Notes: a model not told the origin generated them from the sequence alone. 62,965 nucleotides of DNA, filler included, from Basidiobolus ranarum (GCA_040143965.1; 26 parts of 26 records of this genome joined end to end with filler, not necessarily neighbours in it); one strand, 5' to 3'. Counted from the whole stretch's first letter, positions 13,440 to 60,000 are shown. Numbers and translations are program-made.

Positions 13440-13459
13440 TTGTTACAAACTCTTTGTTA

Positions 13460-20650: not shown

Positions 20651-20656
20651 GGATAG

Positions 20657-31585: not shown

Positions 31586-32014
31586 CTGAAAACCTTTATC
31601 AGAATTCATATAAGTTGGTTCAACAACCATATTTAAAGTTTGGTTAGACTTGCCACAGTTTATGTTGTAATACCATTCCATATCATATTTGGATCTAATA
31701 AACATGGAAGTTTTTCCCGCTGTTATATTACATGGTAGCGGGTTATCTTTTATCATTGCACCTGTGTAGCCAATGATAACAAATCTTGTATCATCGGCGC
31801 CCCATATAATTCCCCCAGAATTCATAACAACAGGTTCACAATCTACACCAGTATTATTAGTATTGGTTGTGTACGAAACTTTTATGTTAGTTTTGGACTG
31901 AAAAATAATTGTCCATGATATAGTTACTATAAAAGATAAAATAAGTATAAGATATATTAAAACTTGATATTTTTTGGAAAAGGGTTTTGTAACGGGATAT
32001 TCAACCTGAAACAT
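31586..32014 (-). CDS. Intronless membrane-anchored protein (one N-terminal TM, Cys-containing C-terminal region), 3'-truncated; on a virus-like contig
   Basis: MFQVEYPVTKPF..LIYLILILSFIVTISWTIIF hydrophobic stretch; very AT-rich codons. Confidence 0.7.
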
Positions 32015-32149
32015 AATTTAAATATTAGCAAGGCTTTAGCGCAAATATAGTATTGTACCGCATATTATACATTATTAAAAATGGCATATTTCTTGTTTGA
32101 TTTAGATATCAAGTGTATACAGATCGACGAATAAATATTTAGAACAAAT

Positions 32150-33910
32150 TTATATATCGGAGAAAAAAAATAGGATGATAAGTTTATAAAAAGTTTAGAA
32201 TACTATATGGCCCAGATGCTATAATCACGAAACCGTATCAACAATTAGAGTTTGTAATCTCGGAGAAAAAAATATTTTCTTCACGAAGTTTAAAAAAGTT
32301 AAGTTATTGTATAGTCCAGTTGATATCACAATTTTAATATCACAGAAATAACTTTTGGAACGAAAAAGTTTCGAAAAGAGAAAATAATATTTTTTAAAAA
32401 GTTTAGAAAAATTTGGAACCAAGATACGAATTTGGTTTGGAATTAAGTTCGGAATTAAGATTTAATTCAAGTTCTAATTCGAGTTTAAAAAAAAATATTT
32501 TGCGAAATTATTTTTAAAAATTTGAGATCCAAGATGAAGTTTGGGTTTACAAAATAGTTAAATTAAGTTAGAACCAAAATCTAAATTTAGTTTGCGATAT
32601 AGTTTTAAATAAGATTTAATTCAAGTTTGAAAACTAATATTTTGGAAAAAAATATTTAAAAAAGTTTCGAACCAAGATATAAATCAAGTTCTAAATTAAA
32701 TTTGTTGCGAAGATAATATTTAAAAGTTTTAAACCAAGATCTAAATTAGGTTTAAAAGATTTAATTTGCGTAAAAGATTTAAAATAAATTATCGTTAAGT
32801 AAGAATTAAGAGTCGAAAGTATGAATTTGTAAAAAATTTAAAATAATTTCGTAAAGTCTAAAAGAGGATCTACAAAAGATTAAATTCGTAATAATTTTAA
32901 AATAACATTTCGTAAAGTTCGGATTAAGATTTAAAAATAAAATTCATACAAAAATTTAAAATAAATTATCGTTAAGTAAGAATTAGGGTTGAAAAATAAT
33001 TTTTGTAAAAGATAGAAAATATATTTCGTAAAGTCTGGAAGAAGATCTGAGAAAGATTAATTTGCGAAAAATTTAAAATAAATTATCGTTAAGTAAGAAT
33101 TAGGGTTGAAAAATAATTTTTGTAAAAGATTTAAAATATATTTCGTAAAGTTTGGAAGAAGATCTGAGAAAGATTAATTTGTGAAAAATTTAAAATAAAT
33201 TATCGTTAAGTAAGAATTAGGGTTTGAAAAATAAAATCCGGGAGAATTTAAAATAAAATTTCGTTGAGTAAGAATCTAGAGTTTGAAAGTTTGAATTAGG
33301 AAAGATCTAAAATAAATTCCGTAAAGTCTGAAATAAGAGTTGGAAATAGTTGATCCGTGAATAATTTAAAATAAAATATCGTTAAATAAGGATTTGGGTT
33401 TGAAAAAAACATTTTGCGGAGATTTAAAATAAATTTCGTAAAGTCTGGAAGAAGATCTACAAAAGGTTGAGTTCGTAAAGATTTGAAAGATAATTTCGTA
33501 AAGTCTGGAATTGGATCTAAATCAAGTTCTAATTCGAGTTTTAAAATAATATTTTGCGAAATAAATTTTTAAAAAGTTTTAGAAAAGTTTCGAACCAAAA
33601 TATAAATTTGGTTTTAAATTAAGATCTGACATCAAGTTATAGATCAAACTTTGTTGCGAAGATAAATTTAAAAAGGTTTCGAAAAGAGAAAATATAATTT
33701 AAAAAAGTTTATCCAGAGGACAAGAGGTTGGGTTTGGAAAAGTTTGATAGGATGGTTAGAAAAAAAGTTTATCCAGAGGACAAGAGTTTGGGTTAAGGTA
33801 AAGGAAAAATGGTTGGAGAAAAAGTTTATCCAGATGGCAAGAGGTTGGGTTAAGGTAAAGGAAAAAGGTTGGTCGAGAGTTTGGGGTACGGAGAAGTTTA
33901 ATCTAAGATT
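32150..33910. repeat. AT-rich, C-poor degenerate tandem array (about 58-bp monomers, about 117-bp dimers), same family as 41284-42340 and 55813-56920
   Basis: Repeated AAAATAAATTATCGTTAAGTAAGAATTAGGGTT and TTTCGTAAAGTCTGGAAGAAGATCT; AAAAAGTTTCGAACCAAGAT shared with the other two contigs. Confidence 0.9.
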
Positions 33911-34010
33911 NNNNNNNNNNNNNNNNNNNNNNNNNNNNNNNNNNNNNNNNNNNNTTAATTAATTAANNNNNNNNNNNNNNNNNNNNNNNNNNNNNNNNNN
34001 NNNNNNNNNN

Positions 34011-34095
34011 ACAATAATGTGCCGGTTCTCTGACGGGTTTGCTATTTCGGAGGGTGGATCCGATCCGGATCAAATCGATTTTATTTTTGTTAGGG
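34011..34095 (+). mobile_element. CpG-intact copy of the EnSpm element terminus
   Basis: GGATCCGATCCGGATCAAATCGATTTTATTTTTGTTAGGG; compare the CpG-decayed copies at 14231, 6314 and 50234. Confidence 0.75.
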
Positions 34096-34481
34096 TTAAA
34101 GGCACTTTATTCTTTTTTAACTTGGAGCAAAGTTTTGTTTCAGATAGGTTTACATTGTTTTCTTCTCCTACATCAGTGTACCAAAGTTCTTTTTCTTGCA
34201 GCAGCATTTTCATTTTAATTTTCCAAACTTGCTAATTGGTTCTATCCAGTTTTTCAGAAGAGGGAAAAGTTCAATAGGCTTGAGAAGTAAACATTACAGA
34301 GAGTGTAAGCTTGGGTTGCTTAGGCAATTCAAAATTCAACACTCTCCCTCAACTAAATAGTCATATAAACTAATCCTAATTAAGGTCTAAATTACTCAAA
34401 TTTCTGTCTAGCTGATGTTTTGGTTAATATATCAGCAATCATGTTTTCTATAGAACCATAAGTTAAGTCAATACACTAATG

Positions 34482-35350
34482 TTAATATTAGCATTGCCTA
34501 AGCACCTACTTAGTCATATATAGCTTAGTACTTATTTATCTTATATTTAATTAAGATATTATCCATCATTCTCAATTAGAACTTACTTAGAATATTTTTA
34601 CCAACTTAGAAGCTCTCAGATGTATAGATTTTCAAACTTGTGCTACAAGCCCTAAACTTTGCACACATGCTCCTGGGACCTTCCTTAACACATTCTACAT
34701 TTTACTTTGCTTACATTTTGACAAAGTAATAAGTGTCAGCTTGTTACTCATTAAATCAATAGGTGAAAACCACCAATTTGTCAAATTTTTGGAACTACTT
34801 CCAACAGGCTCCCAGGCTCCCAAACACTTTAACAGGCTATGAGCCCTGATCTTGGCCTCTCTGTAATGTCTACTTCTCAAATTTATGGAACTTTTCTCTC
34901 ATCTCAAAAAATAGATGGAATCAATTATCTAGTTTGGAAAATTAAATTGAAAATGCTGCTGCAAGAAAAAGAACTTTGGAATGCTGTTGTAGGAGAAGAA
35001 AAAATGTAAAACTATAGGAAACCAAAGCTTTACTCCTGGTTAAAAAAGAACAAAGTGCCTTTTACACATCTTGTCTTAATGTTAAAGACAAATTGCTAAT
35101 TCAATGTTCAATAGCTAAAACTGCCAAGAAGGTATGGAAAGACTTGAAAGACACCTACCAAACAAGTTCTGCTGCCAACAAGATGTTTCTAAGGAGGCAA
35201 TTCATGAACTTAAAGATGAAGCCAGGTGAAGACATTAAATCACTAATTAATAGTGTCACTATTTTAGTGGATGAAATGGAATGCATTGGAGTACCTTTTA
35301 CTGATCAAGATATCATAGTTACAGTCCCGGATAGCCTGCCACAAAAACAT
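34482..35350 (+). mobile_element. Copia family C LTR, PBS and gag relic
   Basis: GGCTATGAGCCC; IDGINYLVWKIKLKMLLQEKELW..ANKMFLRRQFMNLKM. Confidence 0.88.
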
Positions 35351-36148
35351 TATGGTGGGGTCGCACTGCTATCCACTGGCAGGTTGATTTATTTGCACTC
35401 CAAGCTCATATCATTTATATTGCATAATTTCCATTTTATAATCAATATTTGACTTAACCATATTTTCTGGCCAATCATATCACACCATTACTTTAATCAT
35501 CAACTATTTGAGATTTATCAATATTAACCGCATTAGCCCTATTATTTTCTGGAAAATTTAACAATATTTTGGAACATTTCACAAGATTTCTGGAATATTT
35601 GATGATTGGTTGATTTTGACCAATTTAAACTAGATTTTGCCACAATTCTCCATGACTTTCTGGATTATTCTACAACCTTCCAGAACATTCCACAGATTAC
35701 TAATCTTATAATTTCTGATGATATCATAACCCCAGATCCCCACCAATATAATTCCCTGGAACTTTCTGAAAATTCTTTTTCATAATCATTCCTACCAACA
35801 GAAAAGTATAAATAGGAGCCATATCTTTTCAAATAAAAATCATCCTAGTTTTCAACTAACAATTACTGTTGAAAGTCTGGTGACTTTTGGTACAAGCAGT
35901 AATTCCCAAAGAGGAAAATATAGAGTATGGTGACTGCATATGAACACAAAGTCTAAGGCCAATCTATTGCTTGTATAGCTGAAATGCCAAAGTACCATAC
36001 ATTGACAGACTAGGTTAAGGTTCCCTAGCCATATAGGCATCGCATACAAGGACTGGTAGCTCAGTGGTTAAAGCCCCTTGCTAGAGTGAAGGAGGTCCCA
36101 GGTTCAAATCCTGGCCAGACCAATATTTCTCCCTAAATAATTTCAACA
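35351..36148 (+). repeat. About 800-bp LTR-like segment (T[A]TGGTGGGG...TTTCAACA) directly followed by PBS and family A gag
   Basis: Interrupts family C gag at 35350; ends CAACA immediately before GGTTATGAGCCC (36149). Confidence 0.6.
36050..36122 (+). tRNA. tRNA-like (pseudo-tRNA) sequence inside the LTR; isotype unresolved
   Basis: 73 nt: GGACTGG/CCAGACC acceptor stem (one mismatch), A-box TAGCTCAGTGG, CCTT/AAGG anticodon stem, CCAGG-TTCAAAT-CCTGG T-arm with B-box. Confidence 0.75.
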
Positions 36149-36180
36149 GGTTATGAGCCCCATGTTCTAACCTTTATAGC

Positions 36181-36335
36181 ATGATAGAAACAACTACTAC
36201 CACTTTTATTAATTCAGGTGTTGAAAAGCTTGATGGAGAAAATTACAATTTCTGGAAGTTCAAGATGCAAATCATGCTGGAAGATAGGGAGCTTTGGGAT
36301 GTAGTCTCTGGAGATGAAAAGGAACCTTCTGACCC
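36181..36335 (+). pseudogene. Copia family A gag start (truncated by contig edge)
   Basis: KLDGENYNFWKFKMQIMLEDRELW. Confidence 0.9.
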
Positions 36336-38859
36336 NNNNNNNNNNNNNNNNNNNNNNNNNNNNNNNNNNNNNNNNNNNNTTAATTAATTAANNNNNNNNN
36401 NNNNNNNNNNNNNNNNNNNNNNNNNNNNNNNNNNNTTCTTCCAGCTATCTGGCAGATACCTTGCAATATTGTGCCACTCTGTATTAAGTTCTTCCTAGAT
36501 ATCTGCATGGTCAACACCAGACTGAATGTCAAGTTGAATGTTCTTCCTCTGAAGCCACTTTCTGCATACTTGCACTGCATCTTTCCCTTTATGCATTTGA
36601 AAATACTCCTCAAGCACTTTGACTATTTTTGTACATCCTTGTAGTGTGCCACTACTGATGGTGCATTATGGTGTTCTGCAGCTCTGATATTCAGAGTCTG
36701 TTGGTTTGCTGATTTTCCTAGGAGATTTCTACTTACATGTGCCCAAGCAATTTTGGGTTGTTGTGTAGGTTAAATAGTCCAACACATATTCTGCTCTGCT
36801 AGATTGTCATGGTGTAGTGTTGGATAGGGGTGTTAACTAAAATATTCAGTAATAAAGCTTAACCCCACTGAATTTTTAATACTGTAAGCTTAAAATACTG
36901 ACAGGGGATATATTCTTCACTCTATCTTTAAAGTGTGAAGACACACTTTAGTATGTCAACAGCCTGAAGACTTTATGAGAAAAGATTATTTCTGATAATA
37001 GAACTATCAGAATACTTCATACTACCAGGGTAGAAAAGACTCTGGTGGTTTCTCCAACTTGAAGTTTGAAGAAAAAGATATAGTTCTTTTGAGATTGGCA
37101 AAGACTTTTATTAAGAGTTGGATATATTCTATGGCTGTAAGAGTGAAGATAACTATGAAAGAATCTGTACTACAATCTTCAATAGTCAAGCCTAGTTGAG
37201 TTGCAATAGTAATCTTTATTATCTTACTATGATACAGGGCGGAATATCTAGTGAAGGAAAGGATAAAGAATATGGTGCAGTTTTGGATGGTGCTAAGGCT
37301 AGAAGCTTTTTCAATAGGGGTAAGCATTGCTTATATAAAGAAACAGCTTAGAGTAAATGCTATAAGTTGGTAGCTTAGCATCAAAGTGCCAATAAGATCA
37401 CTAATATAACAGGTGCAGCTTTGAAACTTTGAACACTTTAGCATCAAATACTGTTGCAGCTCTGTGCAAACTTTGAAGAGAACCCATTGGCTTGGTCAAA
37501 AGGTAGCGCTAATTTTGTGAGCATCTTGAGGTCCTTAATTCCTGTATTTTGAATATAGGCTAGTGTTGAATTTTGTGTTGGCAATTTTGAAATTGTTGTA
37601 GCTTCACCAAAAGTTGATCCAATCTTATGATTCTTGCATTGTTGCAAAGCTCTAACTAAGGAGTCTTGGATTGCAACTTGGGTTACCGCAATAAGTTAAG
37701 TATTGATGTGATAATGAGTAAATAAATATTCTTGTTCTTTTTCTTGATCTGTAAAATATTTTAAGATAGCAAAAGATAATATTCTTCCTACTTATTATGT
37801 GCAAGATATGATTGGAATATTTCCAGAACTATAACAGGGATGTTTGGATATATGGTGTTGGTTTGAATGAAATCCTATACAAGAATGGACAGAGGGAGCA
37901 GCATGCTGCTGTAGCTTAAGTACAGCATTCTTGTATCATTGTTGAGTGACTCTCTAACTGTTGACTAGTTGCTTCCAAAAACTGCATTAATTGCAATATT
38001 GCAGCATATTGCTTGTTATGGCCTGTATAGCAACTTCATAGCTTTTACTTATGATTGCATACAAATCATTATGGTGTTCTGCCTGTGATTCCCTTGTTGT
38101 AATAATTCTATAAAAATTTTTTATGGAGGGTTGTTCATTAGTGGGCAAAGTAGTCATTTTGGAAGTTGATGGTCTTGACAGTGTTTTGGTTGAACTTTGC
38201 TCTACTATTGAGTCACTACAGAATTGGGGGATTACAATCTCTTCACTTGCACTATTGATAGAAAGCAACACATCTGGTAAATTGAATAATGCTTCATCAT
38301 TACATGATTTAGTCCCCAGCATGTTAATGCCTTCCAAAGTGGATTGTGGATTGCTAGACTGCTCATCAGTTAAGTCCTTGGTTCTTGCTGGTTTTTTTGC
38401 CTTTGTGCCAGAAGGCTTTGGCTTGGAAGGCAATTTAGATTGATATTTTGAATGCTTTTTGAATGGCATTAAAGTTTACCAATGGCAAACCTGGTGTAAT
38501 GAAATTTCTTAGAAACAGCTTATAATGAAGCAAATTGCCATCCTTTACCAGAAATATCTTGTAAATCCCTTGATGACTCATCTGTGACACTATCTTGGAA
38601 TAAGCTGACAATATTGAGGGGCTATACCTAATATACCACCTTTACATAGGTGGTGTTCTTTTTTGTACAATATCCTTCTCATGCCAAAACACAAATGTTG
38701 AAAGAAGCCCTGCTATTATTGTCACATATTCTTGTGCTATGATAGCTGGAGGCTTCGTANNNNNNNNNNNNNNNNNNNNNNNNNNNNNNNNNNNNNNNNN
38801 NNNTTAATTAATTAANNNNNNNNNNNNNNNNNNNNNNNNNNNNNNNNNNNNNNNNNNNN

Positions 38860-39375
38860 AGTTCCGTATTACATCGTAACGTCAAGCCTAATATCCTTTC
38901 GTGCTTCGGTGACATCGCCTTAGCTATCGGTGGAAATTACGAATCTTACGTGAACATCTCCATGGGCATGCTACAACAAGCCTGCAGTATGACAGTTGTT
39001 CAGACAACTTCATACGATATGATTGATTATATCAATCAACTTCGGGAAGGTATCATCGAGGCTTACGTTGGTATTACTCAAGGCCTCAAGGCTGGGGACA
39101 AGATTGCATTGCTCCTTCCTCACCTTGAACACATCTTTGCCTTTATGGGCATGGTGTACAGTGATACCGAAAGAACAGAATCTATCACCAGAAGTATGAT
39201 CGGTTTACTCGGTGATCTTTCGGAAGCTTTCCCCAATGGTCAAATCAAACAGCTATTAAGTGCCAGTTGGATTGCTACATGCTTAAAGGAAGGTAGATCA
39301 AGTAGACATTCTTCCGCTAGCACTCGTGAGGTTGCTAAATGGGCAAGGGAGATGGTAAAACGCGCTTCAGCTTAA
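38860..39375 (+). CDS. KAP95: Importin beta-1 (karyopherin beta), C-terminal part, 5'-truncated
   Basis: LHRNVKPNILSCFGDIALAIGG..MIDYINQLREGIIEAYVGITQGLK..GLLGDL..AKWARE. Confidence 0.93.
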   Translation, partial: SSVLHRNVKPNILSCFGDIALAIGGNYESYVNISMGMLQQACSMTVVQTTSYDMIDYINQLREGIIEAYVGITQGLKAGDKIALLLPHLEHIFAFMGMVYSDTERTESITRSMIGLLGDLSEAFPNGQIKQLLSASWIATCLKEGRSSRHSSASTREVAKWAREMVKRASA

Positions 39376-39780
39376 ATCTATTAACTTCATCATTTTCCTC
39401 CATCTTGAAGCAGTTGGAGGAACGATTTCCACTAGACTCCTAATGAACATCATTTCTACCTTACCTGCTCCCCCCCATTCACTTCATATAAATATATTAT
39501 GTAGCCCTGGCCTTGGTCATCACTCTTAAATACATACTGTTAATCAATTTTATTTTTATCTCCGCTTTTTTCAATGGTTTTAGAAGTCATCTCTGATCAA
39601 CATCGTACATTAGTATGCTCTCTATAAATAAGGTCACTTGACTGCAAGTCGATCCCTTGTCGCTAATAGAGTACATTAGTTGAGCAATTCTGAAAGCACC
39701 GGTTGTTAATGATTAAACAGTTGTTTATTTTTTTGTGACTGAACCCAAGATAATTCGATCAGACACGTGATTAAGGTATT

Positions 39781-41283: not shown

Positions 41284-42340
41284 GGTTACGGAAGAGTTTT
41301 GGATTAAAAAAAGTTTCGACGAGAAAGTTTCGGGAAGAGAAAAAAATAATTTTAAGAGGTTAGGGAAGATTAAAATATAAACATGTTAGTTTGTGATATA
41401 GTTTTTATTTAAAAGATTAGAGTCGGAGAGACGTTAGTTTGGAAATTATTTTAAAATCTAAAAACAAATTCGAGAGACGTTAGTTTGGAAAGATTAATTC
41501 CAGAAGACAAGAGATTGGGTTTGGAAAAATAAATTTTAAAAAAAGTTTTCGGAGGACAAAAGATAACTTTTAAAGGTTGGTTAGAGATGATAAAGTTTAG
41601 AAGGAACAAATTATAAACCAAAAAGTTTATTAGAAGAAGATAATAGGGTAGACGGGAAGATTAGTTATAGATGAGAGGGGTTCGAGAAGAGAGAAGTTTG
41701 GTTAGAAATAATTTGGGAAAGTTTGGAACCAAGATCCAGGTTAGGTTTGGAATCAAGTTTTAAATAAGATCTAACATCAAGTTTGGAAAAAAATATTTAA
41801 AAAAGTTTCGAGAAGACAAAAGTTTAATTAGCGAAAAGATTTGGTGTACAAAAGTTTAGAGTTGGATCAAGTTGGGGTTGAGACGAGAAAGTTTCCAGAA
41901 GAGAAAAGTTTGGTAAAAAAAAATAAATTCGGAAAGATTTAAAAAGGTTTCGAATCAAGATCCAAGTTAGGGTTGGAATTAAGTTTTAAATAAGATCCAA
42001 CATCAAGCTCGAATTAAAGTTTGTTGCGAAAAAATATTTAAAAAGGTTTCGAGAAGACAAAAGTTTAATTAGCGAGAAGGTTTGTGTTAAGGGTTTGGAA
42101 TTAGATCAAGTTAAGGTTAAGACGAAAAAGTTTCGAGAAGAGAAAAGTTTGGTTTAGAAAAAAATAATTTCGTAAGATATTTAAAAAGGTTTCGAGAAGA
42201 GAAAAGTTTGGTTTAGAAAGAAATAATTTCGTAAGATATTTAAAAAGGTTTCGAGAAGAGAAAAGTTTAATTTAAATTAATTTTGGATGTCGGAAAAGTT
42301 TAAAGTTGGGGTTAAGACGAGAAAGTTTCGAGAAGATATG
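41284..42340. repeat. AT-rich degenerate tandem array (about 235-bp and 60-bp units), virus-like repeat family
   Basis: 60-bp unit TTTCGAGAAGAGAAAAGTTTGGTTTAGAAA.. at 42131 and 42191; about 235-bp duplication 41715/41950. Confidence 0.88.
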
Positions 42341-42403
42341 GGTTAGGGTTTAAGGTTTAGGGTTTAGGGTTTAGGGTTTAGGGTTTAGGGTTTAGGGTTT
42401 AGG
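42340..42403 (+). repeat. Interstitial telomere-type tract (TTTAGGG)6 plus variant units
   Basis: Six perfect TTTAGGG at 42356-42397, flanked by TTAGGG, TTTAAGG and TTTAGG. Confidence 0.95.
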
Positions 42404-42566: not shown

Positions 42567-43469
42567 ATGTTGGACTACTTTTTTGCCGGAAACGTGGAAA
42601 TTGATCGGGGAAAAACCGGGACCGTAATATATTATCTTTCTATTTTTCTATATATGGATCTGGACATCGTGACATTTTTTAGCGATCTTGAAGATGATAT
42701 AAAAAAACAGTGTAGGGCTATGGTAAAAAAAATAAGAAAAGCAAAAAAAGAATTGTTGCTCAAGTATAATATGTCAGAATTGCAAAATAATAATCAAGTA
42801 TGTACTGCTATTATAAAATCGGGACAAAAAAAGGGTATGAAGTGTTCACGTATACCTAAGAGTGGTAACCAGTGTTGTGGTTATCACAGACTTAAGATGG
42901 TTGATTTTATTCCAAAACTAATAAAGGTTGATAACACAAAAAAAGAATATGATGCAAGTAATAAACAGCGGGAGGATGATGTAAATAATAAGGGGCATGA
43001 TGGTGTAAATATTTCAGATATGTATATAAATAGTCAAGAGTCGTCAGGCCAATCATCTTCTTATAAGGATTGTGATAGTATAAATAACAGGGTGTCACCA
43101 GTGCAAACAACTACGGATGACCAGCCAACTACGAGTAGCCAACAATTGCAGGAACAAAATATAAGTGGGGGGAGTTATCTTGGGCAGACTATAAATAACC
43201 AATTATCATCTGAATCAAATACGCCGGAATGTTTGAGATTATTGGAGGGTGTAGGCAATGAGAGTTTGCCATCATATTCAGAGGTTCAAAGGTTAAGGTG
43301 TGAGATTACGACAGAGGGGGATGGGTCGTTAGTTCATTTGCAGAATGCATCAGTGGAGATAGGGGCAATGATATCACAGGAGGGGGGTATAATACCGTCG
43401 ATAAAGAATGTAATAATACCGTATGCCTGGGGAGCTGCATGGAATGTTGTAAAAAGGGGTTTAAGTTAG
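42567..43469 (+). CDS. Intronless virus-like protein with a C3H zinc-finger motif (likely start at 42654)
   Basis: CTAIIKSGQKKGMKC..CCGYH resembles the Cx-IIKSG-RKG-C..C..H finger (DUF5763-like) common in large DNA viruses; intact 300-aa ORF. Confidence 0.65.
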   Translation: MLDYFFAGNVEIDRGKTGTVIYYLSIFLYMDLDIVTFFSDLEDDIKKQCRAMVKKIRKAKKELLLKYNMSELQNNNQVCTAIIKSGQKKGMKCSRIPKSGNQCCGYHRLKMVDFIPKLIKVDNTKKEYDASNKQREDDVNNKGHDGVNISDMYINSQESSGQSSSYKDCDSINNRVSPVQTTTDDQPTTSSQQLQEQNISGGSYLGQTINNQLSSESNTPECLRLLEGVGNESLPSYSEVQRLRCEITTEGDGSLVHLQNASVEIGAMISQEGGIIPSIKNVIIPYAWGAAWNVVKRGLS

Positions 43470-43707
43470 GTGGGTTAAGGGCAGAATAGATTATGAGTCA
43501 GGAAGGCCCTTAGCTGTTAATTTTGGTAGGGTTTAGAATAGTTTGGGGGGGAGATTTTTGTTGGAAGAAGTATTTTTTTGTCGACTAGGGTTTAGGTCGA
43601 GATGATANNNNNNNNNNNNNNNNNNNNNNNNNNNNNNNNNNNNNNNNNNNNTTAATTAATTAANNNNNNNNNNNNNNNNNNNNNNNNNNNNNNNNNNNNN
43701 NNNNNNN

Positions 43708-45060
<1,353 letters not shown>

Positions 45061-50234: not shown

Positions 50235-50487
50235 GACAGTGGACCCAGAGCTCACTGGCTCCTTTACTTTTCTCTTAGATTTACTAACTTAGCATGAGAT
50301 GCTCCATTTTGTGACATCCTCTATATTGTCCTCTCTAATATTTTTGCTTGAATGTTTGTTAGTGTAGCTGAAGAATTCTTTGCATATTAAATCCAGGTGA
50401 TTTTGAGCAACATTCCACACAGTTTAAAAAATGTTATATCACTCATCATCAGAGCAAGTGATGGCAGCTGTGACATTCAGAGTCTCT

Positions 50488-50863
50488 GTTAAAGTTTATT
50501 GTCTTCATCAAATTTGTTATCTCTATCTTTATCCATATAACTTTTTTATATATCACAAATGAGCTGGCTAAGACTACTTAGTCTAATATCACTTCACTGC
50601 AAATCAGAAAATATTTTATATATATATGTGAATAATGTGGGGATTAGCAATTCCATATTGGATATGTCAAACTTGTCCAAATTGCCCCAAAGATAGCACT
50701 TTTTACTCCTACAGATTTTCTGAACACAATCCCAATGTTAGTTATCTTTATTTGCACCAAAATGTATAAATGCTTCATTTCTGGGCAATAAATAATCATC
50801 TCACAAAGCTATTCACAAGTCCACTTTTCAAACATTCCTCCAAACAGGCAATATTTCCCCAAT
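50488..50863 (+). repeat. Copia family A solo LTR
   Basis: Matches 20657-21034. Confidence 0.8.
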
Positions 50864-50973
50864 AGTCTTTTGANNNNNNNNNNNNNNNNNNNNNNNNNNN
50901 NNNNNNNNNNNNNNNNNTTAATTAATTAANNNNNNNNNNNNNNNNNNNNNNNNNNNNNNNNNNNNNNNNNNNN

Positions 50974-51940
50974 CTTTGATTGCTAGTGTATCGGTATGTC
51001 CTTTTCTTTTCTACAGTACTTTCTTCGTGCATGCAGTAGAGCATGTCGCGTCGACCAGGATCGATCAACACACACTTGCGACACCAGCCAAGAGTTCTTC
51101 TTTTCCAACTTATCAACATACTGAAATTCTTCGACTTCTTTTTCTTTTCTACTAGCACCACTACTACTACCTTTCTTCGTATCATAGTTTTGCTTCAACA
51201 CAGACACACCAACACCATCAGTAAGCAACATGCCCCTAAACTTCATTGCATTCCTTCCACCTTGTGGCTTCATTGCTTTTGTTGTGGCATCAATGACAGC
51301 TCCCCATGTTACTTCTTTGTCCAAATGGCTGATAGCAGGGTTCTTCAAAATCTGCGTGTTTAAAATAAGCGTGTCAATTGTCATATAGGATGGTATGAAT
51401 GTTCTCCTCAACGGTAATAAGATAGGAATTCTTTTGGTAGATTATCAATTTTTCCAGACGAAATAGTCGTTTTGATTTTACTGCATTGCTCGACGATAGA
51501 TTTTACTGCAGCCAACACTTCTTCCCCCGAGTTACCCTTCTTCTTCATTTCATCTTTTGCTATCTTTATTCGTTCATTCTTCTTTAAGAGTATGTTTAAG
51601 AACATACGTAGCTTGTTTCTGAATTGTAAGGAGATGCCATTCAAATACGCTGTGTTTATTTTCGTTACTTCATACGAGGCTATTTGATGTGCATACTTTA
51701 AGTTAATTGGCTCATATAAACTATGTTGAAAGTATAAGTCTCGATGGTTGTTGATAAGCTCTCGGTAGGTTCTTGACTTTGACGATGCTGTTTGTTTATT
51801 TGGTTTGTAATTCTGGAGAAGCGACAAGAAGACTTCTCTGTAAAAATCAACGTTGGAAAATTTTTCCAGGGCAAAGGCAGGGTCATTTTCCAATTCTTGA
51901 ATAAAAATGTACTTCAAAAAGGTGAACGTATAGTGCCTTT
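50974..51940 (-). pseudogene. Fanzor1 N-terminal-to-RuvC-I relic (frameshifts and internal deletion), truncated by contig edge
   Basis: FLKYIFIQELE..FYREVFLSL..YEVTKINTAYLN..PLRRTFIPSYMTIDT..FRGMLLTDGVGVSVLKQ..CVLIDPGRRDMLYCMHE..YRYTSNQ (IDPG is RuvC-I). Confidence 0.85.
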
Positions 51941-52518
51941 AACTACATTGACATTGACATTGACACCATTAAAGTACCATTTAGCATGCAAATCCGTTGA
52001 ATTTAAACATTTCTAGGTTCAATCAAATTCTGACATTCCCTATATAGCCATACTCAGTGCATGACCGATCCCAGTCTGGAGACCTTGTCGAGCTATATTT
52101 GGATCATTGCGCTACAAACATTGAGTCACTGATCATTCGCAACCTGTGCACTAGGCTGCTGACATGCAAATACCAATTTATTTGATCTAGGGTATAGGAC
52201 AGTTTAAGTGATTGAAAATTGTGAACCTCTAAACTAACTCGACACCAAACGGCCGTGTCAAATCAATCCTAAGGAAAAAGAAATATATAGATACAGCATT
52301 AATTCAACGGAAAATGAAGTCCGAGTCCTTGAAGGTACATGTTTGTACTTACTTGATGTTGCTACAGTGTCTCTAGCCACTGTATCTTGTTACTACTTAA
52401 ACACTAAGTCAAACTATTGCTTCTAGGATATGAAAGTGCAATTTTTGGCTAGTGATATGATACGGTGAAGAACTCTGCTGTTTGTCGAGAAAATGGCTAA
52501 TATTCCAACCTTACATAT

Positions 52519-52829
52519 GTTGAAGTATTTTGGGAGTTTGTTGGAAGTAGCTTTTCGAACTAGAAGAATTGGTGGTTTTCACCTATTGATTTATTGAGTT
52601 GACATTTCTAGTTTTGTTAAGTAAACAAACAAACGTGTAGAATGTGTTAAGGAAGGTCCCAGAAACATGTGTGCAAGGTTTGGGGCTTCTTTGAATAAAT
52701 CTATATATTTACAAACTCCTAAGTAAATTCCTCTTGAGAATAGTGGGAGATATCTTAGTTCAATATGGAATAACTAAATATTAAGCTATATATGACTATA
52801 TAGATGTTTAGGCTATGTTAATTTCAACA
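52519..52829. repeat. Copia family C solo LTR
   Basis: TGTTGAAGTATTTTGGGAG...TAATTTCAACA; matches about 24434-24983. Confidence 0.8.
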
Positions 52830-53954
52830 ACATAATCGTAACGGCTTTTCCGATCTATGTTTGCAGAAAGATTAGTACTCAATAAGTATATTTGATAAGC
52901 AAGCTCAGTTCTAGTATATACGCCTAAATCTTAAAACAAATGATCTCATTTTGGTAATTGCGGTCGGATATGGAATCCTCTTTAAATCTTAATGGCCTCT
53001 GATGATTATTGTTTTTGGTCATTCCGAATAGTGGACACAAAATACAAACAGCGGCTTATCCGGATTCTCTGAAACAAAAGAATATAGGCTAAATAGTCTT
53101 GACTTAGCAAATGATAACATGATGCGTTTTCCTAGATCTTTGGAAACCGGATTCTTGGGCTACCAGACCCCACCAATCTGAGAATTCCAGTACTTAAGCT
53201 ATCCATCTCGTGTTGTTCTGGGCTATACTGTTCACCGTTAGGAAAATAGCTAATGGTCCAAAAGTTTATTGGCTTTCCCAACCGTATACAAGCNNNNNNN
53301 NNNNNNNNNNNNNNNNNNNNNNNNNNNNNNNNNNNNNTTAATTAATTAANNNNNNNNNNNNNNNNNNNNNNNNNNNNNNNNNNNNNNNNNNNNCTAACGC
53401 AGTCCAATACTCGTGTCACTCTCCTGTAATATAGATATGTTTGACGAGCTATATTGCACAATTAGGAAAGTTTCCAGAAGTTTAAATCCAATCATTTAGT
53501 ATCCAAAGGTTGAGTTCACTGTACGAATCAGGAAGGCCTCGAGAAGCTTTCCATGTTTGATCATGTACTCAATAAAGCCTGTTACTAAATGAATCATGAG
53601 AGTAATACTGTTCACCTTTCTTTTCACTTCTTTCGAATTTCCTTTTTCTGATTTTCTCCCTCTGGTGCGTTTCGAATGTGCAGACAATATAAGTTTCTTA
53701 TATTTGTATCGACATTTAAGGAATCACTGCTCAATAGGGTGAGGGTGCAAAGGCATAGAGGTACTACAACATTTGATTGGTATATCTCAAACCAACTCCT
53801 AAGATGGGGAGTTATCAATATCGTATGTCCTTATATTAATTTGTGGTCACCTAATTTTATTAGAAACAAATCAAACACTTTATAACAAGTACATCGCACT
53901 GCCTCGGAATTTTTCCTTCGTCTCAATAATCAACTTCAACTCTATTCATACATA

Positions 53955-54723
53955 ATGGATCATAGTGGACATGATATGGGTGGTATGACAATGCCAATGC
54001 CCAGTAGTGGTGGTGGTGGTGGTGGCAGTGGTTTGGCATTGCCACCTCTCAATCCTTTGGACCCCATGTATAACGGTGGAATGAGTAGAGGTAGTAGCGG
54101 CGTGACTCCTTCTGGTGGTAGCGGTGGTGGCAATCCACTAAATCCCTCTCCACTTCCTCCTGCAGCTTGTGCAATGAATGTATTGTATGCCATATGTTTT
54201 CACCAAAGATCCGTATGGTTACTGAATTTCTTGCTTTTCAATCCTTTACACGTAGATGGTCTTCACTTGGGATTACAGCAATATGTGCTTGGTGTTCGAC
54301 AATTGGCAGGTTCGTTCTAGTGGTGGTTTGGTAGCTGCTTGTATCGTCACTTTTGCAATTGCTGTTGCTTATGAATTGATCCGGTGGGGGATTCGGGTCA
54401 CTGATCGACGCATCTTTAAAAATGAGAAAGCACTGAAAGATTCCAGCCACAAGAATGGGTTTTTTGTCTATACGTAGGTTACTCATAAATATATCGTAAA
54501 ATGCAGAAATAGATTCTAACAACTTCACAGTGTTCCTTGGGTGAAACAAATACTTCGCGCCCTTCTATATGCAATCCAAGTCCTTATATCCTTCTTTCTA
54601 ATGCTTATCATTATGAGCTACAACGGATATATAATGTTTAGTCTTGTTCTTGGTGCATTTGTTGGGTTTCTTCTATTCTGCAGAGATGGAATACATGGCT
54701 CGCAGTCTGCCGGTTGCCATTAA
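53955..54723 (+). CDS. Ctr copper transporter; exons about 53955-54179, 54256-54473, 54531-54723
   Basis: Met/His-rich N-terminus MDHSGHDMGGM, CAMN|MVFTW..LVFDNW, MxxxM (MLIIM), SYNG, C-terminal GCH. Confidence 0.93.
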
Positions 54724-55530
54724 GCCTTTTTTCTCCTAAGGCATTATTTCTCAATTTTAACAGAATTCTTAGTTCACTATGCAGCCATATCCATTTAAAC
54801 ATTACTTCATTAAAAGCCTCAAAGTTCGGCTAAAGTATCTAATTCCACCTTCATCTTTTATGTACATAACAATAAAGTCACTATGTATTCTTTACAAGAA
54901 CATCTGCGATTCAGTAAACGGATAGTCCTCATTCACGTGACCACCATATGCATGCCATTACGTTTCAAAATTCAATGATGAAGCAATGAATGGTGATATC
55001 AATTCAAACTAAACAAGCTTCCATCAGTTTTCCATCAGGCTACTATATTAGGGTAGATGAGGTCTAACGCAGAGTAACTCTTCTACCGGGTTTCCTTATT
55101 TGAGACGACACTATTGATAACTATACCCCAATACTTCTTTTCCACTGAATGGATGGTATGACATTAGATGCGTTTAATAGCCCAATACAGGTTTTTGGTG
55201 AAACAGAACGGTGGCGAATAACTTCTAGTTGATATCCTTAAACGTTCAGCCCCTTTAACTTGGCCTTGCCGATGACGAGTGAGTTTGATCTCAGGTGAGT
55301 TTTTGATTCTCGCTGATTTAACACACCTTTGATATTAATTCAATAAGTTTTAATAGATCGGGTGAGGAGCCTAATATCACTTCTGAGCAGATCGATTTGT
55401 TCGCACCATGTACTTGACTCGAGAGTCGAAATTCACTTAAATATGATTCCCTAGACTATCAATCGTACCGTTCCCTCTAAGTTTCTTTCACTTGTGGGAA
55501 GATACATCCTTACTAGACCTTTTCGTAAAA

Positions 55531-55712
55531 ATGGATCACAGTGGACACGACATGGGTGGCATGAACATGCCTAGCGCTGGTGGAAGCGGTAGTGGATTGG
55601 CATTACCACCATTAAACCCCCTTGACCCGATGAGCAACGCTGGTGGAAGCATGAGCGGTATGGATCACAGTGGGCACAACACAGGAATGTGTAGTATGCA
55701 AGTAAGTATACT
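55531..55712 (+). CDS. Second tandem Ctr copper transporter, first exon
   Basis: MDHSGHDMGGMNMP..LALPPLNPLDPM..MCSMQ followed by GTAAGT donor. Confidence 0.85.
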
Positions 55713-55812
55713 NNNNNNNNNNNNNNNNNNNNNNNNNNNNNNNNNNNNNNNNNNNNTTAATTAATTAANNNNNNNNNNNNNNNNNNNNNNNNNNNNNNNN
55801 NNNNNNNNNNNN

Positions 55813-56920
55813 TTTTAAAAAGTTTCGAGCCAAGATCTGAATTGGGTTTGGAATTAAGTTTTAATTATAGTTCTTATTTGAGTTCTAAATTAAACTTGTT
55901 GCAAAATTATTTTTAAAAACTTTTTAATCTCGGATATGAATTTGGTTTTGGTTTGGTTTTAAAAAGTTTCGAGCCAAGATCTGAATTGGGTTTGGAATTA
56001 AGTTTTAATTATAGTTCTTTTTCGAGTTCTAAATTAAACTTGTTGCGAAATTATTTTTTAAAAACTTTTTAATCTCGGATACGAATTTGGTTTTGGTTTG
56101 GTTTTGGGTTTAAAAAGTTTCGAGCCAAGATCTGAATTAAGTTCTAATTATAGTTCTAAATTAAAGTTTGTACGAAATAATTTTTTAAAAAGTTTTTAAT
56201 CTCGGATACGAATTTGGTTTTGGTTTGGTTTTGGGTTTAAAGAGTTTCGAACCAAGATCTGAATTGGGTTTGGAATTAAGTTTTAATTATAGTTCTTCTT
56301 CGAGTTCTAAATTAAACTTGTTGCGAAATAATTTTTAAAAACTTTTTAATCTCGGATACAAATTTGGTTTTAAAAAGTTTCGAGCCAAGATCTGAATTGG
56401 GTTTGGAATTAAGTTCTTATTATAGTTCTAAATTAAACTTGTTGCGAAATAATTTTTAAAAAAAACTTTTTAATCTTGGATACAAATTTGGTTTTAAAAA
56501 GTTTCTAACGAAAAAACAAATTAAGATCTTATCCAAGTTCCAAATTAAAGTTTGTACGAAATTATTTTTAAAAAAATTTTTAATCTCGGATATGAATTTG
56601 GTTTGAAAAAGTTTCTAACAAAGAAACAAATTAAGATCTTATTCAAGTTCCAAATTAAAGTTTGTATGAAATTATTTTTTAAAAAGTTTTTAATCTCGGA
56701 TACGAATTTGGTTTTGGTTTTGGTTTGGTTTGAAAAAGTTTCTAACGAAGAAACAAATTAAGATCTTATTCAAGTTCCAAATCAAAGTTTGTACGAAATT
56801 ATTTTAAAAAGTTTTGAGCCAAGATCCGAATTGGGTTTGGAATTAAATTCTTCTTCAAGTTCCAAATTAAAGTTTGTACGAAATAATTTTAAAAAGTTTT
56901 AAAACAGTTTCTAACAAAGG
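55813..56920. repeat. AT-rich tandem array of about 125-150-bp units, virus-like repeat family
   Basis: TTTTAAAAAGTTTCGAGCCAAGATCTGAATTGGG recurs at about 55813, 55957, 56108, 56236 and 56367; TAATCTCGGATACGAATTTGG in each unit. Confidence 0.92.
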
Positions 56921-56976
56921 AACATTGTTAAATTATTTTATGACAATCATGGGTTTTTAAAAATAAAATAGGTCTA

Positions 56977-58128
56977 TCATAGGTGATCAGTTGGAATCCT
57001 AAGAGTGCAATTATCTGTGCCAATAGTGTTGTTGTACATAACTTTTATGTCTCCCATAAGTTTGCAAGCCCTCCTGTTAAGATACCCTGTAGATGCGGTA
57101 CTAACACCAGTGTTAACAATTCCCTCCCTGGCTGCCATTTGATGAACAAAAAATTCATACGGGTTTAATCCTTTGACATATGAAGAAGTTATGTATCCAT
57201 TTTGTAATTGGTTGTCAAGGTCGTTAGAATATTTGTAGGGTAATTGGCATTTGACAGGTTCACCGTACATGTATTGTTGACCCAATTGTTCGCTGATTTG
57301 GGTGATGTTTAATTTGTTCCCCTTGGCCCCTGATGATACCATACTTTTGAGACCCTTACCTGGAAAGTGGCACTCTTTTGATATTGTGGATAACCCCCTC
57401 CAATGCAAATATCTAATGCATATCTTCTGCAGGTTAAAAACAAACTCGACTCCTTGTTTGGAAGTTAGTTTTTTTAGAATATTATTTAAAACAGATTTAG
57501 TAACAATCTCGTCGTTGTATACGGTACTATCACATCCATTTGGTATTGCCAAACGAAATAAATTTTTGCCAGAAAAACGTACATTTTTTGGAAATAGTGT
57601 CTGTTTGCAGAAGAAAAAGCAATCCATAAATATTTTGGGGGATATTGGTTCATCGTTTAGAGTCATGAGATATGATCCTGTGATAGTATCTTGGATAGGA
57701 GGCGGGGGTTTTGTGTTTGTGACTTCAAGTAAGACATTAAATTCGTGTTCTATGTTTGGAATGACAAAAATAATCATCTCGTCGCCATCGAAATCTGCGT
57801 TAAAAAATGGAGTTACCAAAGGATTAATATAAATGGTTTTGATGTTATCTTTTCTAACTTTAACTTTAAATCCCAAAACGGAAGTGCCAGTTAGGGAAGG
57901 TTGGCGGTTGAGAATTATTTCATCATCATCTGATAGCAATCTTTCGTAATTATGGTTTACAAAAATTAAGTCTGGGTCATCAATGAGAAAGTCGCTGTTG
58001 GGTAAAAACAGATTTTTTTTGTTGGAAAAGTATTTGTGGTTGTATTTGTGAATACGGATGGGGATACGAATGTTGTCAGAGATGTATTTGGGGATGAAGA
58101 TAGTATTGTAATCTAGATAGGGATCTCC
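56977..58128 (-). CDS. Multisubunit RNA polymerase largest subunit (Rpb1/beta'-like), compact, ending just after the bridge helix; 5'-truncated by contig edge
   Basis: Frame open from the contig edge: GDPYLD..IFIP, LNRQPSL, FNADFDGDEM, IQDT, MVSSGAKGN..QISEQLGQQ, GYITSSYVKGLNPYEFFVHQMAAREG..TASTGYLNRR. Confidence 0.95.
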   Translation of the reverse strand, partial: GDPYLDYNTIFIPKYISDNIRIPIRIHKYNHKYFSNKKNLFLPNSDFLIDDPDLIFVNHNYERLLSDDDEIILNRQPSLTGTSVLGFKVKVRKDNIKTIYINPLVTPFFNADFDGDEMIIFVIPNIEHEFNVLLEVTNTKPPPPIQDTITGSYLMTLNDEPISPKIFMDCFFFCKQTLFPKNVRFSGKNLFRLAIPNGCDSTVYNDEIVTKSVLNNILKKLTSKQGVEFVFNLQKICIRYLHWRGLSTISKECHFPGKGLKSMVSSGAKGNKLNITQISEQLGQQYMYGEPVKCQLPYKYSNDLDNQLQNGYITSSYVKGLNPYEFFVHQMAAREGIVNTGVSTASTGYLNRRACKLMGDIKVMYNNTIGTDNCTLRIPTDHL

Positions 58129-60000
58129 GGNNNNNNNNNNNNNNNNNNNNNNNNNNNNNNNNNNNNNNNNNNNNTTAATTAATTAANNNNNNNNNNNNNN
58201 NNNNNNNNNNNNNNNNNNNNNNNNNNNNNNGCTTTGGTTTCCTAAAGAGATATAGCATTGTAGCAGGAAAGTATAGTGGAAAATCATTATGTAGGCCTCA
58301 ATCAAAATAAGTAAAGTAGTCAAAATCTTGATTAATTCTCAATACATCCATACTCAAAGATATTCATTGAGAGCTCTAGACTTAAGACACTATGAATAAA
58401 GCTTCCATCATCTTTTGAATGTGCAATAATGTCTAAAAGTACTTTTCTCAAATATACCACAAAAGTAAAATAAACTGTTTCCAAAACGGTAAATAACATT
58501 GTGCCGGATAGTGCCCAATCATGCCAATTTGTGCTGGCACACTTTTTAGCTGGCCTGATCTGGCTCAATAAAATGGAACAAGTCTGTTAACTAGTTGCTT
58601 TTAAATGCTTCATTGATTGCAATAATGCTGCAATACATGGGCCTGTATAGCAACTTTGTAGTTTTTACATATGATCACATACAAATCATTATAGTGTTAT
58701 GCTTGAGATTCCCAGGTTGTAATGATTCTATCTAAATAGCCTATAGAGAGGTGTTCAATAGTTGGCAAAGTAAGCTTTTTGGTTGTTGATGGTCTTATTG
58801 GGGTGTCTGTTGAACTTTGCTCAACTATTGATTTACTATGTAGTTGGGGGATTAAAATCTCTTTACTTACACTATTGCAGGAAAGGAACACATCTGTTAA
58901 ATTGATTAATACTCCATCATTACTTGAGTTAGTTTACATCATGTTAGTGCCTTCCAAAGGGGTTAGTGGATTGCCAGACTGCTCATCAAATAAGTCCTCT
59001 GTTCTTGCTGGTTTTTTTACTTTTGGGCCAACAGGCTTTTGCTTGGAAGCCAATTTTGATTTCAATTTTGAACAATTTTTTAAAGGTATTGAAATACTTG
59101 GATGGTAAAGTGAATGTAATGAAATTGCTTAGATACAGCTTTTGATAAATCAAAATTCCGCCAATTACTGGAAATATCTTTTAAATCCCATAATGACCCA
59201 TATGTGACACTTTCTCATAAGCAGCTGATGCAATATATTGGCTATTCCTAAAATACCATCCTTATGTGGTGGGTGTTCTTTTCCTACAATATTCTTATGA
59301 TGCTGCAACTCAAATTTTAAAGAAGCCTTGCTATTATATTTGCAAATTTTTGTGCTACAAAAGCTGGTGACTTCATGGAAAAAAATTACCACAAGCATAG
59401 CCACTGTACAATCCCAGCAGCTGCACAAAGCCTGGTAAGTCTTAATAGTAATAAGTGCATAAAGTAACTTTAATTTGGCCCACTGAGTCTGTAGGCTGTG
59501 CTTTGTCTCAAAATTTGGTTAACACTGCTGAAAGTCAAGAGACCATGCTTTTACCATAGTTATGTGACCAGCTTGATGTAGGTAGTAGTGCAGGTTTTGT
59601 TGAATCAGTAAGTCCAGAAAACTTGGAAGACATGCTGCTAGATGTTGACCTTAGTGATTCCAGTACTGTGGTGGTATATAAGAAGATGAAGAGGAAGACA
59701 ATGGCTTGTTATGGAGTCTTTGTTATTGGCAATCATCAGTCCACTCATAATAATCCAGAGCTTGATCTAAAGTCTGTGGTTTGTCACAGAATGCTGCATA
59801 AGCATATACATCATCATTGGAAGTTTTCCACCAGTTTCCTGGCTTATTTCTCCATGTGGATGATCTTCTGTGTCCTGAATCATCTTTTGATGTAAAGGGG
59901 ATAAGGATTTTGCTTGAATAGGGCTCAGATACAGCTGGAATTTTGCAAGAAACTTCCTGAGTTGTGATGATGGTGTTTTTGGGATCATGGATGATGATTT

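Follow-up and report, generated by a model that had tools for sequence, protein, structure and literature searches.

The window analysed here, a stretch of 62,965 nucleotides (filler included) from Basidiobolus ranarum, is made up of 26 unrelated contigs of approximately 2.3 kb each, joined by N44-TTAATTAATTAA-N44 spacers. Three of these 26 blocks, at 31586-33910 (contig 1), 41284-43607 (contig 2) and 55813-58130 (contig 3), were proposed in a sequence-only reading to be pieces of one large DNA virus, and their boundaries were confirmed. The piece size, which had been taken as a property of the element, reflects instead contigs listed in order of length. The following features were found in the three contigs:

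31586..32014, minus strand: ORF1, start codon ATG at 32014, 143 codons up to the contig end, which truncates the C-terminus
32015..32399, no strand assigned: non-repeated AT-rich spacer upstream of ORF1, GC 0.25
32400..33910, plus strand: contig 1 array, a mosaic of sub-arrays that reaches the contig end
32401-32766 and 33503-33623: units of contig 3 type in the contig 1 array
32755-33504: units with periods of 59/117/176/293 in the contig 1 array
33701-33872: three copies of a 57-bp unit in the contig 1 array
41284..42342, plus strand: contig 2 array, from the contig end inward
41718-41766 and 41938-42044: units of contig 3 type in the contig 2 array
42125-42268: 2.5 copies of a 59-bp unit in the contig 2 array
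42343..42403, plus strand: telomere-like perfect (TTTAGGG) x8.7 at the inner array edge, 163 bp upstream of ORF2
42567..43469, plus strand: ORF2, complete, 300 aa
42801-42887: CCCH-type motif of ORF2, residues 79-107
43470..43607, plus strand: G-rich tail with TAGGGTTTAG words, reaching the contig 2 end
55813..56925, plus strand: contig 3 array of 110-137 bp units, periods 110/127/272, from the contig end inward
56977..58130, minus strand: part of an RP1n gene, 383 codons and a stop, 3' portion, open upstream to the contig end
57034..57144, minus strand: bridge-helix segment HQMAAREG...NRRACK, residues 329-365
57778..57801, minus strand: catalytic loop NADFDGDE, residues 110-117 of 383

The reading frames had been described as intact, which is true of ORF2; the contig ends truncate ORF1 on the 3' side and the RNA polymerase ORF on the 5' side. 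Each is longer than the longest frame in 300 shuffles (144 aa versus a maximum of 112 in the case of ORF1). The assignment of an RNA polymerase to contig 3 was borne out by Pfam, which recognised Rpb1 domains 2, 3 and 4 and, of domain 5, the first 53 positions. The predicted product is the N-terminal half of a split RPB1, divided just past the bridge helix. Its stop codon lies at the natural end of the family, 18 residues past the bridge helix and within approximately 5 residues of the ends of P0003, P0004 (relatives from Logan contigs, 51% identical to the contig 3 polymerase) and others, and the best matches among 1.84 billion representatives were proteins of 570-670 aa with the same end point. 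Invariant residues of the bridge helix include H329, R334, T340, G341, T344, G348, Y349 and R352. Immediately after NADFDGDE, a near-invariant Asn is replaced by Ile (M-I in contig 3, M-N in the family). An N-half bearing the catalytic loop would have to pair with a separately encoded C-half bearing the trigger loop; no C-terminal RPB1 gene is present in the window. In archaea, the largest RNA polymerase subunit is split into A' and A'' between the bridge helix and the trigger loop. The contig 3 family is divided at this same place, but its proteins are far shorter (570-670 aa), and it forms a clade of its own and occurs in viral gene contexts. In fetched metagenome loci, ORFs of ca. 880-920 aa extend 28-43 residues past the contig 3 stop. 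The matches listed in a metagenome scan were all distant RPB1 loci, with 23-29% identity overall and segments of up to 43%.

The nearest named protein is from B. ranarum (174 of 209 residues identical, 83%), and a B. meristosporus protein is identical at 63 of 91 residues (69%). The contig 3 polymerase retains 68 of 75 family-conserved positions, and it differs from the B. ranarum copy at 1 of 41 conserved columns versus 35 of 168 others (Fisher p 0.0026), a pattern that indicates a history of purifying selection. In LG+G4 trees, contig 3 and the two Basidiobolus proteins formed one clade (support 100/98), nested in a 30-row clade of compact split RPB1 proteins (support 100/99) of which P0185 is also a member. 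The P0185 gene is probably the 610-aa ORF on L161, a 51.7-kb IMG/VR contig equal in length to the longest contig of P0185; further genes on L161 code for RPB2, a DUF5757 protein, an SNF2-type helicase and MutS-HNH. L001, the top match in IMG/VR, carries a split RPB1 together with a D5 primase-helicase and a capping enzyme, and falls outside the 30-row clade. The top structure match in BFVD was the RNA polymerase of Pithovirus LCPAC104 (25% identity), with other NCLDV families close behind. Because named NCLDV and cellular sequences are not among the tree rows, the viral label is drawn from gene context and IMG/VR membership: the RPB1 groups with viral genes, and NCLDV core genes are found in the context of the probable clade member. 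A large-DNA-virus origin of contig 3 is, on these sequence comparisons, well supported.

The zinc finger attributed to contig 2 was recovered as a CCCH-like motif in ORF2 that has no Pfam match, even at E 10; outside the motif the protein is low-complexity and S/T/Q/N-rich. A word-index search with ORF2 found the protein itself and no homologue. A phmmer search of 14,974 ORFs matched the motif to an L001 ORF (11316-11933) that adjoins RPB1 (E 1e-4, 17/46 identities), the likeness being confined to the 46-residue motif, and when the motif was written as a strict regular expression, that L001 protein was its single match in the 14,974 ORFs. For the motif, C-x(13)-C-x(9-10)-C-x2-H, the viral counterpart P0256 gave a match to zf-TRM13_CCCH with an E of 0.0064 and 16.5 bits, short of the 20.9 cut-off. 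No further relative of the L001 protein was found in IMG/VR by a close-relative search. Atlas matches of ORF2 toward NCLDV clusters were set aside, their scores of 0.76 and TM values of 0.13-0.23 by query both being below a meaningful level. We infer that ORF2 encodes a putative CCCH zinc-finger protein related to the RPB1-adjacent viral gene.

The description of the contig 1 product as a membrane protein agrees with a single strong hydrophobic helix near the N-terminus of ORF1 (residues ca. 14-40; KD 2.55 at residues 19-37). The protein contains three Cys and three N-x-S/T sites; in a single-sequence fold (pLDDT 46.5), the helix alone was modelled with confidence. No homologue was found by word-index search, Atlas or Pfam, or among the 14,974 ORFs, and a Pfam match to HA1 (E 0.031) was rejected as chance. 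ORF1 is predicted to be an orphan type II membrane protein. A firm viral relative is thus available for one of the three ORFs, the polymerase; ORF1 has none, and ORF2 has the 46-residue motif.

Particular repeat words had been quoted as common to the three contigs. As quoted, they are not: AAAAAGTTTCGAGCCAAGATC occurs four times, always in contig 3, and its A variant has no exact match; TTTGTTGCGAA is found in contig 1 (two copies) and contig 2 (one copy) and is absent from contig 3; TTTGGAATTAAGTTTTAA occurs three times, in contig 3 only. The kinship itself is real. There are 33 14-mers in common to contigs 1 and 3, 31 to contigs 1 and 2, and 11 to contigs 2 and 3, while the overlap of the other 23 contigs with the trio amounts to just three words, between contig 2 and contig 24308. 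In blastn, a 137-bp unit of contig 3 gave seven HSPs in contig 1 and two in contig 2 (68-86% identity); the other 23 contigs yielded none at E<=1e-3. The three repeat-bearing contigs have a GC content of 0.26-0.33, versus 0.33-0.42 in the rest of the window. Codon usage sets their ORFs apart from host and TE ORFs weakly, and GC1 is low in the ORFs of all three, unlike in host genes. Counts of k-mers agreed with the earlier claim that the trio is free of TE debris: such debris makes up 13 of the 26 contigs, and host TE words are absent from contigs 1-3. The claim that CpG is kept holds for whole contigs (o/e 0.98-1.53 versus 0.02-0.14 in the 13 TE-like contigs) and does not extend to the ORFs, which at 0.56-0.73 are the same as host genes; the arrays alone are high, at 1.6-2.1. 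CpG loss in the copia-like host debris of the window is extreme, and is not seen in contigs 1-3. Neither Rfam families nor tRNAs were found in the three contigs, nor were the hallmark genes for MCP, family B DNA polymerase, A32 ATPase, VLTF3 and D5; the window as a whole lacks genes for a capsid, a DNA polymerase and a packaging ATPase. Apart from the polymerase, the window ORFs had no match in 161 fetched loci.

The arrays are 1.1-1.5 kb each (32400-33910, 41284-42403 and 55813-56925 in contigs 1, 2 and 3, respectively), and their units are direct, G/T-biased and without inverted arms. They contain 6% C and 18% G in contig 1 (CpG o/e 2.1), 6% C and 24% G in contig 2 (1.9), and 9% C and 16% G in contig 3 (1.6), where the best-kept copies are 95-100% alike. 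The TTTAGGG run scored seven matches, a level reached by none of 100 shuffles; no host telomere was found within the window for comparison, and no Basidiobolus telomere repeat is reported among the literature matches listed. The G-rich tail of contig 2 is probably the beginning of a further repeat block. Folding energies of the units were no better than those of shuffles (z from -1.5 to +0.9), and an identity of the arrays as palindromic MITEs was rejected, there being no inverted-repeat structure and no excess folding energy. The repeat words gave single chance matches only in IMG/VR, on 4 and 24 contigs, with no counterpart of an array; the examined parts of the relatives L001 and L161 are densely packed with genes, and their tandem repeats do not exceed 223 bp. 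Four of the six contig ends fall in arrays, and ORF2 is flanked by repeat sequence on both sides, a layout that fits repeat spacers between single genes. The other two contig ends fall within ORFs and are unexplained by such spacers.

Endogenous NCLDV elements of fungi, including B. meristosporus and B. heterosporus, were described as 'fundsalphavirus' by Gong, Zhang and Han (2020, Virus Evolution; PMC7017919). They carry RP1n and RP1c, are placed among NCLDVs near Pithovirus, and are described as decayed 'molecular fossils', the defining gene being that for DNA polymerase. Contig 3 resembles them in the split of RPB1 at its ORF end, of which the window contains the N-half only. The host genus would also fit, since the nearest named relatives of its polymerase come from B. 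ranarum and B. meristosporus. Unlike the fossils, the contig 3 gene is open, under purifying selection and located beside kilobase arrays; the main text of PMC7017919 makes no use of the word 'repeat'. The fundsalphavirus clade is one of DNA polymerase B next to Pithovirus sibericum; the window is likened to it through RPB1. Pithoviridae, namely Pithovirus sibericum and relatives, are AT-rich, with clusters of non-coding repeats filling intergenic regions (Rigou et al. 2023; PMC10664404). The three contigs are similarly AT-rich with intergenic repeats, and the best structural match is a metagenomic protein, that of Pithovirus LCPAC104. However, Pithovirus repeats are palindromic MITEs (M1/M2) of approximately 140 nt with folding energies of -79 and -65 kcal/mol (PMC10664404), whereas the units in contigs 1-3 are direct and not of the M1/M2 kind. 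Mycodnaviridae, fungal giant viruses integrated in host chromosomes with evidence of replication (PLoS Biol 2026; PMC13533422), set a precedent for endogenous elements that are still alive. They belong to a different viral clade, infect Allomyces and chytrids, which are zoosporic, and have terminal inverted repeats of 9-34 kb rather than gene-by-gene arrays; Basidiobolus, RPB1 and Pithovirus are unmentioned in the main text of that paper.

Based on these data, we consider it probable that contigs 1-3 derive from a single lineage of DNA of giant-virus (Nucleocytoviricota) origin, tied to Basidiobolus-type fungi and belonging to the 'fundsalphavirus' group near Pithovirus. Contigs 1 and 2 are tentatively assigned to the same element because they share a repeat family otherwise absent from the window and a similar composition; a viral origin is plausibly extended to them because this repeat family is exclusive to the trio and the CCCH motif is held in common with a viral contig. 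The earlier proposal of a large DNA virus is therefore well supported for contig 3 and plausible for contigs 1 and 2.

Alternatively, the arrays could be a host satellite, possibly subtelomeric, with contig 3 an isolated endogenous viral gene located in it by chance and ORF1 and ORF2 host orphans, so that no single viral genome is involved. The perfect TTTAGGG run at an array edge, the G/T-richness of the arrays on one strand, as in telomere-associated repeats, the absence of a viral relative for ORF1 and the host-like CpG of the ORFs are all in line with such a scheme, as are the endogenous nature of the published Basidiobolus elements, some located beside retrotransposons (PMC7017919), and the location of one B. 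meristosporus homologue on a 154-kb contig. We nevertheless regard it as unlikely, given the low GC1 of the ORFs on all three array-bearing contigs, the lack of host TE words in contigs 1-3 though half of the window contigs are TE debris, the match of the ORF2 motif to an RPB1-adjacent gene of a viral contig, and a window that holds neither an array-only contig nor one pairing an array with a host gene. That the DNA is a contaminant, from a giant virus that infected some other organism of the sample or culture and has no connection with the fungus, would agree with a composition unlike the rest of the window and with the absence of a visible host junction in contigs 1-3, but is very improbable: the polymerase groups with the proteins of two Basidiobolus species (83% and 69% identity, support 100/98), a grouping that suggests a lineage linked to the fungal genus. 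A cytoplasmic linear plasmid or other non-NCLDV element with its own multisubunit-type RNA polymerase, suggested by the AT-rich DNA and an unusually compact polymerase (full N-half of 570-670 aa in relatives), can be dismissed almost entirely in view of RPB2, SNF2 helicase and MutS on the 51.7-kb L161 of a probable clade member, split RPB1, D5 primase-helicase and capping enzyme on L001 (outside the clade), and structure matches that are NCLDV RPB1 proteins.

In the giant-virus-derived element that we favour, the arrays would be non-coding intergenic filler of 57-137 bp direct units, which may have grown by slippage or unequal recombination. Single genes would alternate with arrays, and we propose that this made the element fall apart into small contigs during short-read assembly. 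An integrated endogenous copy, young or still selected, is its likelier physical state; free viral DNA is a substantial possibility that we rate below even. This kind of element is already published, the gene-by-gene repeat spacers and the evidence of selection being new details. A bolder reading, a living giant virus of the non-zoosporic, terrestrial Basidiobolus, free or reactivable, with genes alternating with G/T-rich kilobase arrays that include TTTAGGG tracts, is doubtful at present. We know of no NCLDV described with single genes alternating with kilobase G/T-rich arrays.

To our knowledge, giant viruses of fungi have been demonstrated only recently, and in zoosporic lineages only. Viral genes of zygomycete-grade fungi such as Basidiobolus are treated as fossils in PMC7017919. 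The polymerase described here is open and constrained, and its neighbours were spared the heavy CpG-to-TpG erosion that the host inflicts on repeats; the lineage may therefore still be active. If it is an ordinary endogenous copy, it adds one further instance to a published list. Repeat spacers would account for such elements being shattered, and overlooked, in short-read fungal assemblies.

The sequence-only reading had taken contig 1 (31586–33910), contig 2 (41284–43607) and contig 3 (55813–58130) to be pieces of one large DNA virus. Their ORFs and repeat arrays, together with examples of the host background, are located as follows.

31586–32014: ORF1 on contig 1, 143 codons, truncated by the contig end
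32400–33910: repeat array of contig 1
41284–42403: repeat array of contig 2
42567–43469: ORF2 on contig 2, 300 aa
55813–56925: repeat array of contig 3
56977–58130, minus strand: polymerase ORF (RP1n) on contig 3, open at the contig end, with Rpb1 domains 2, 3 and 4 and the start of domain 5
1–2335, 9736–12066, 12167–14496 and 58231–60548: examples of CpG-poor contigs with copia-like debris

The RNA polymerase assigned to contig 3 was borne out by these Rpb1 domains. The ORF includes both the catalytic loop, NADFDGDE, and the bridge helix, and ends 18 residues beyond the latter. In a search of 1.84 billion representatives, the best matches were proteins of 570–670 aa with an identical end point; the stop is therefore natural. 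We conclude that RPB1, the largest subunit of RNA polymerase, is split here and that the ORF belongs to its N-terminal half. Two relatives, P0003 (576 aa) and P0004 (607 aa), are each 51% identical to it over the matched stretches. The closest named protein was a Basidiobolus ranarum hypothetical protein (174 of 209 residues identical); a B. meristosporus protein, encoded on a 154-kb contig, was identical at 63 of 91 residues, and a Clydaea vesicula protein was a more distant named relative. Many RPB1-like ORFs of ~880–920 aa from metagenome loci (L082, L084, L100, L102, L132 and others), which presumably represent the archaeal A'/A'' split, stop 28–43 residues past the window's stop.

In a careful tree (LG+G4, 45 rows, 395 columns), the window, B. 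ranarum and B. meristosporus proteins formed a clade (support 100/98), with P0003 and P0004 as its sister (100/99), nested in a clade of 30 compact split RPB1 rows (100/99), to which the longer viral and cellular forms do not belong. A quick tree of 72 rows agreed. The modelled structure (pLDDT 66.8) matched NCLDV RPB1 proteins, the top match being a metagenomic Pithovirus protein with 25% identity.

Of the 75 positions with conservation of 90% or more across 41 relatives, the polymerase retains 68. Its seven departures are mostly conservative, and P0003 and P0004 have eight each. The sole non-conservative departure at a conserved site is Asn to Ile at residue 119, right after DFDGDEM (57772–57774, minus strand), where Asn is near-invariant in the 41 relatives and is kept in the B. 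ranarum copy. Differences between the window and B. ranarum copies were found in 1 of 41 conserved columns and in 35 of 168 other columns (Fisher p 0.0026). Since the differences avoid conserved columns, constraint acted after these copies had diverged. Such a pattern argues against the two being long-dead fossils, and fits a virus that once replicated or replicates still, or a retained functional gene.

Related polymerases are carried by viral contigs. P0185, a member of the compact split-RPB1 clade, is probably a 610-aa ORF on the 51.7-kb IMG/VR contig L161, a match suggested by the equal lengths of L161 and the longest contig of P0185. L161 also codes for a compact RPB2, a DUF5757 protein, an SNF2-type helicase and MutS-HNH. 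The best IMG/VR match was contig L001, with a 780-aa split RPB1, D5 primase-helicase, capping enzyme and DUF5757. The DUF5757-containing protein is encoded near the RPB1 N-half gene on both L001 (4607–6835; one gene away) and L161 (8032–9909; adjacent and divergent), and this proximity may reflect a conserved gene order in the group. The L161 MutS (18140–20893, minus strand), on the same contig as the compact RNA polymerase, combines domains I, III, IV and V with an HNH nuclease in one fusion protein.

Each of the three ORFs is longer than the longest frame in 300 of 300 shuffles. ORF1 has one strong predicted membrane helix, in agreement with its description as a membrane protein; no other recognisable feature or homolog was found by word-index search, Atlas or single-sequence fold. 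For ORF2, word-index search, Pfam and Atlas gave no homologs. Among 14,974 six-frame ORFs from 161 loci, ORF2 residues 72–117 matched one protein (phmmer E 1e-4), a 205-aa ORF immediately 3' of the split RPB1 gene of L001, with 17 of 46 identities across a C-x13-C-x9/10-C-x2-H motif. The L001 protein has a sub-threshold match to the TRM13 CCCH finger. The zinc finger claimed for ORF2 corresponds to this CCCH-like motif, for which ORF2 itself has no Pfam hit.

The window (1–62965) comprises 26 separate contigs of strictly descending length (2,335 to 2,317 bp), joined by N44-TTAATTAATTAA-N44 spacers. Because the contigs are sorted by length, neighbours are unrelated and their adjacency has no genomic meaning. 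The ~2.3-kb piece size, previously attributed to repeat spacers, is instead a product of this length-ordered listing. Thirteen contigs have a CpG observed/expected ratio of 0.14 or less (mean 0.05; range 0.02–0.14), with TpG and CpA in excess (1.33 and 1.37), and carry copia-type gag, integrase and reverse-transcriptase debris; this loss is consistent with a strong repeat-directed process of methylation or RIP type. Host-gene contigs have ratios of 0.34–0.90. Ordinary eukaryotic genes, carried by contigs outside the thirteen, code for a PLP-dependent enzyme, an alpha/beta hydrolase, importin beta and a Myb/CDC5-like protein. A tRNA-Ser (AGA) gene (36050–36122, plus strand; Rfam 50.4 bits, ARAGORN concurring) lies within a TE-like contig. 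Contig 50974–53293, with a moderate CpG ratio of 0.71, has two adjacent minus-strand ORFs (51411–51938, 176 aa; 50986–51441, 152 aa) with no Pfam family, and no repeat link to contigs 1–3.

GC contents of contigs 1, 2 and 3 are 0.26, 0.33 and 0.31, and CpG ratios 1.53, 1.14 and 0.98. Pairs of these contigs have 33, 31 and 11 canonical 14-mers in common; only three words are shared with any of the other 23 contigs. A 137-bp unit of contig 3, at 55947–56083, gave seven HSPs in contig 1 and two in contig 2 (68–86% identity); the other 23 contigs had no hit at E ≤ 1e-3. The relatedness proposed earlier therefore holds, but the repeat words then quoted are shared as exact strings only in part. The arrays are mosaics of direct units (period 57–293 bp) with strong strand bias (C 6–9%, G 16–24%); no inverted-repeat structure was found in them, and they fold no better than shuffles. 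A perfect (TTTAGGG) x8.7 run marks the inner edge of the contig 2 array, and repeat-like G-rich sequence resumes 3' of ORF2. Of the six contig ends, four fall in repeats and two inside ORFs. The arrays are CpG-rich for their composition (1.6–2.1), but the ORFs are only host-like (0.56–0.73 versus 0.55 in host genes). The CpG argument is thus weaker than had been held, while the array repeats have been spared the process that stripped CpG from host transposons.

We consider it fairly probable that contigs 1–3 represent a single viral element, which may be free or integrated. That the arrays are a host satellite and the polymerase an isolated viral gene appears unlikely. No kilobase arrays were found in the examined parts of the gene-dense environmental relatives L001 and L161, and in IMG/VR the array repeat words gave only single chance matches. 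Contaminant DNA and a plasmid are both improbable.

In a survey of 1,006 fungal genomes, Gong, Zhang and Han (2020; PMC7017919) report endogenous NCLDV-like elements from 15 of them. Their 'fundsalphavirus' group occurs in 14 species, including Basidiobolus meristosporus and B. heterosporus, and adjoins Pithovirus sibericum in a tree of DNA polymerases. Its members share D5, SNF2 helicase, methyltransferase, RPB2 and RPB5 genes, and have RNA polymerase subunit 1 divided between an N-terminal and a C-terminal gene. As a separate N-terminal half, the contig 3 gene fits this description. The word 'repeat' is absent from the main text of that paper, and no other relevant publication joining Basidiobolus with NCLDV, giant virus or Nucleocytoviricota was found. 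Intergenic repeat clusters of pithoviruses are described as palindromic MITEs (PMC10664404), unlike the window arrays. Mycodnaviridae of zoosporic fungi, as presented in PMC13533422, are a clade distinct from the window element, and exemplify an integrated fungal giant virus that can still replicate. The element probably belongs to an already published kind; modestly new details are its repeat arrays as spacers from gene to gene, the tract resembling a telomere repeat, and the indications of selection.
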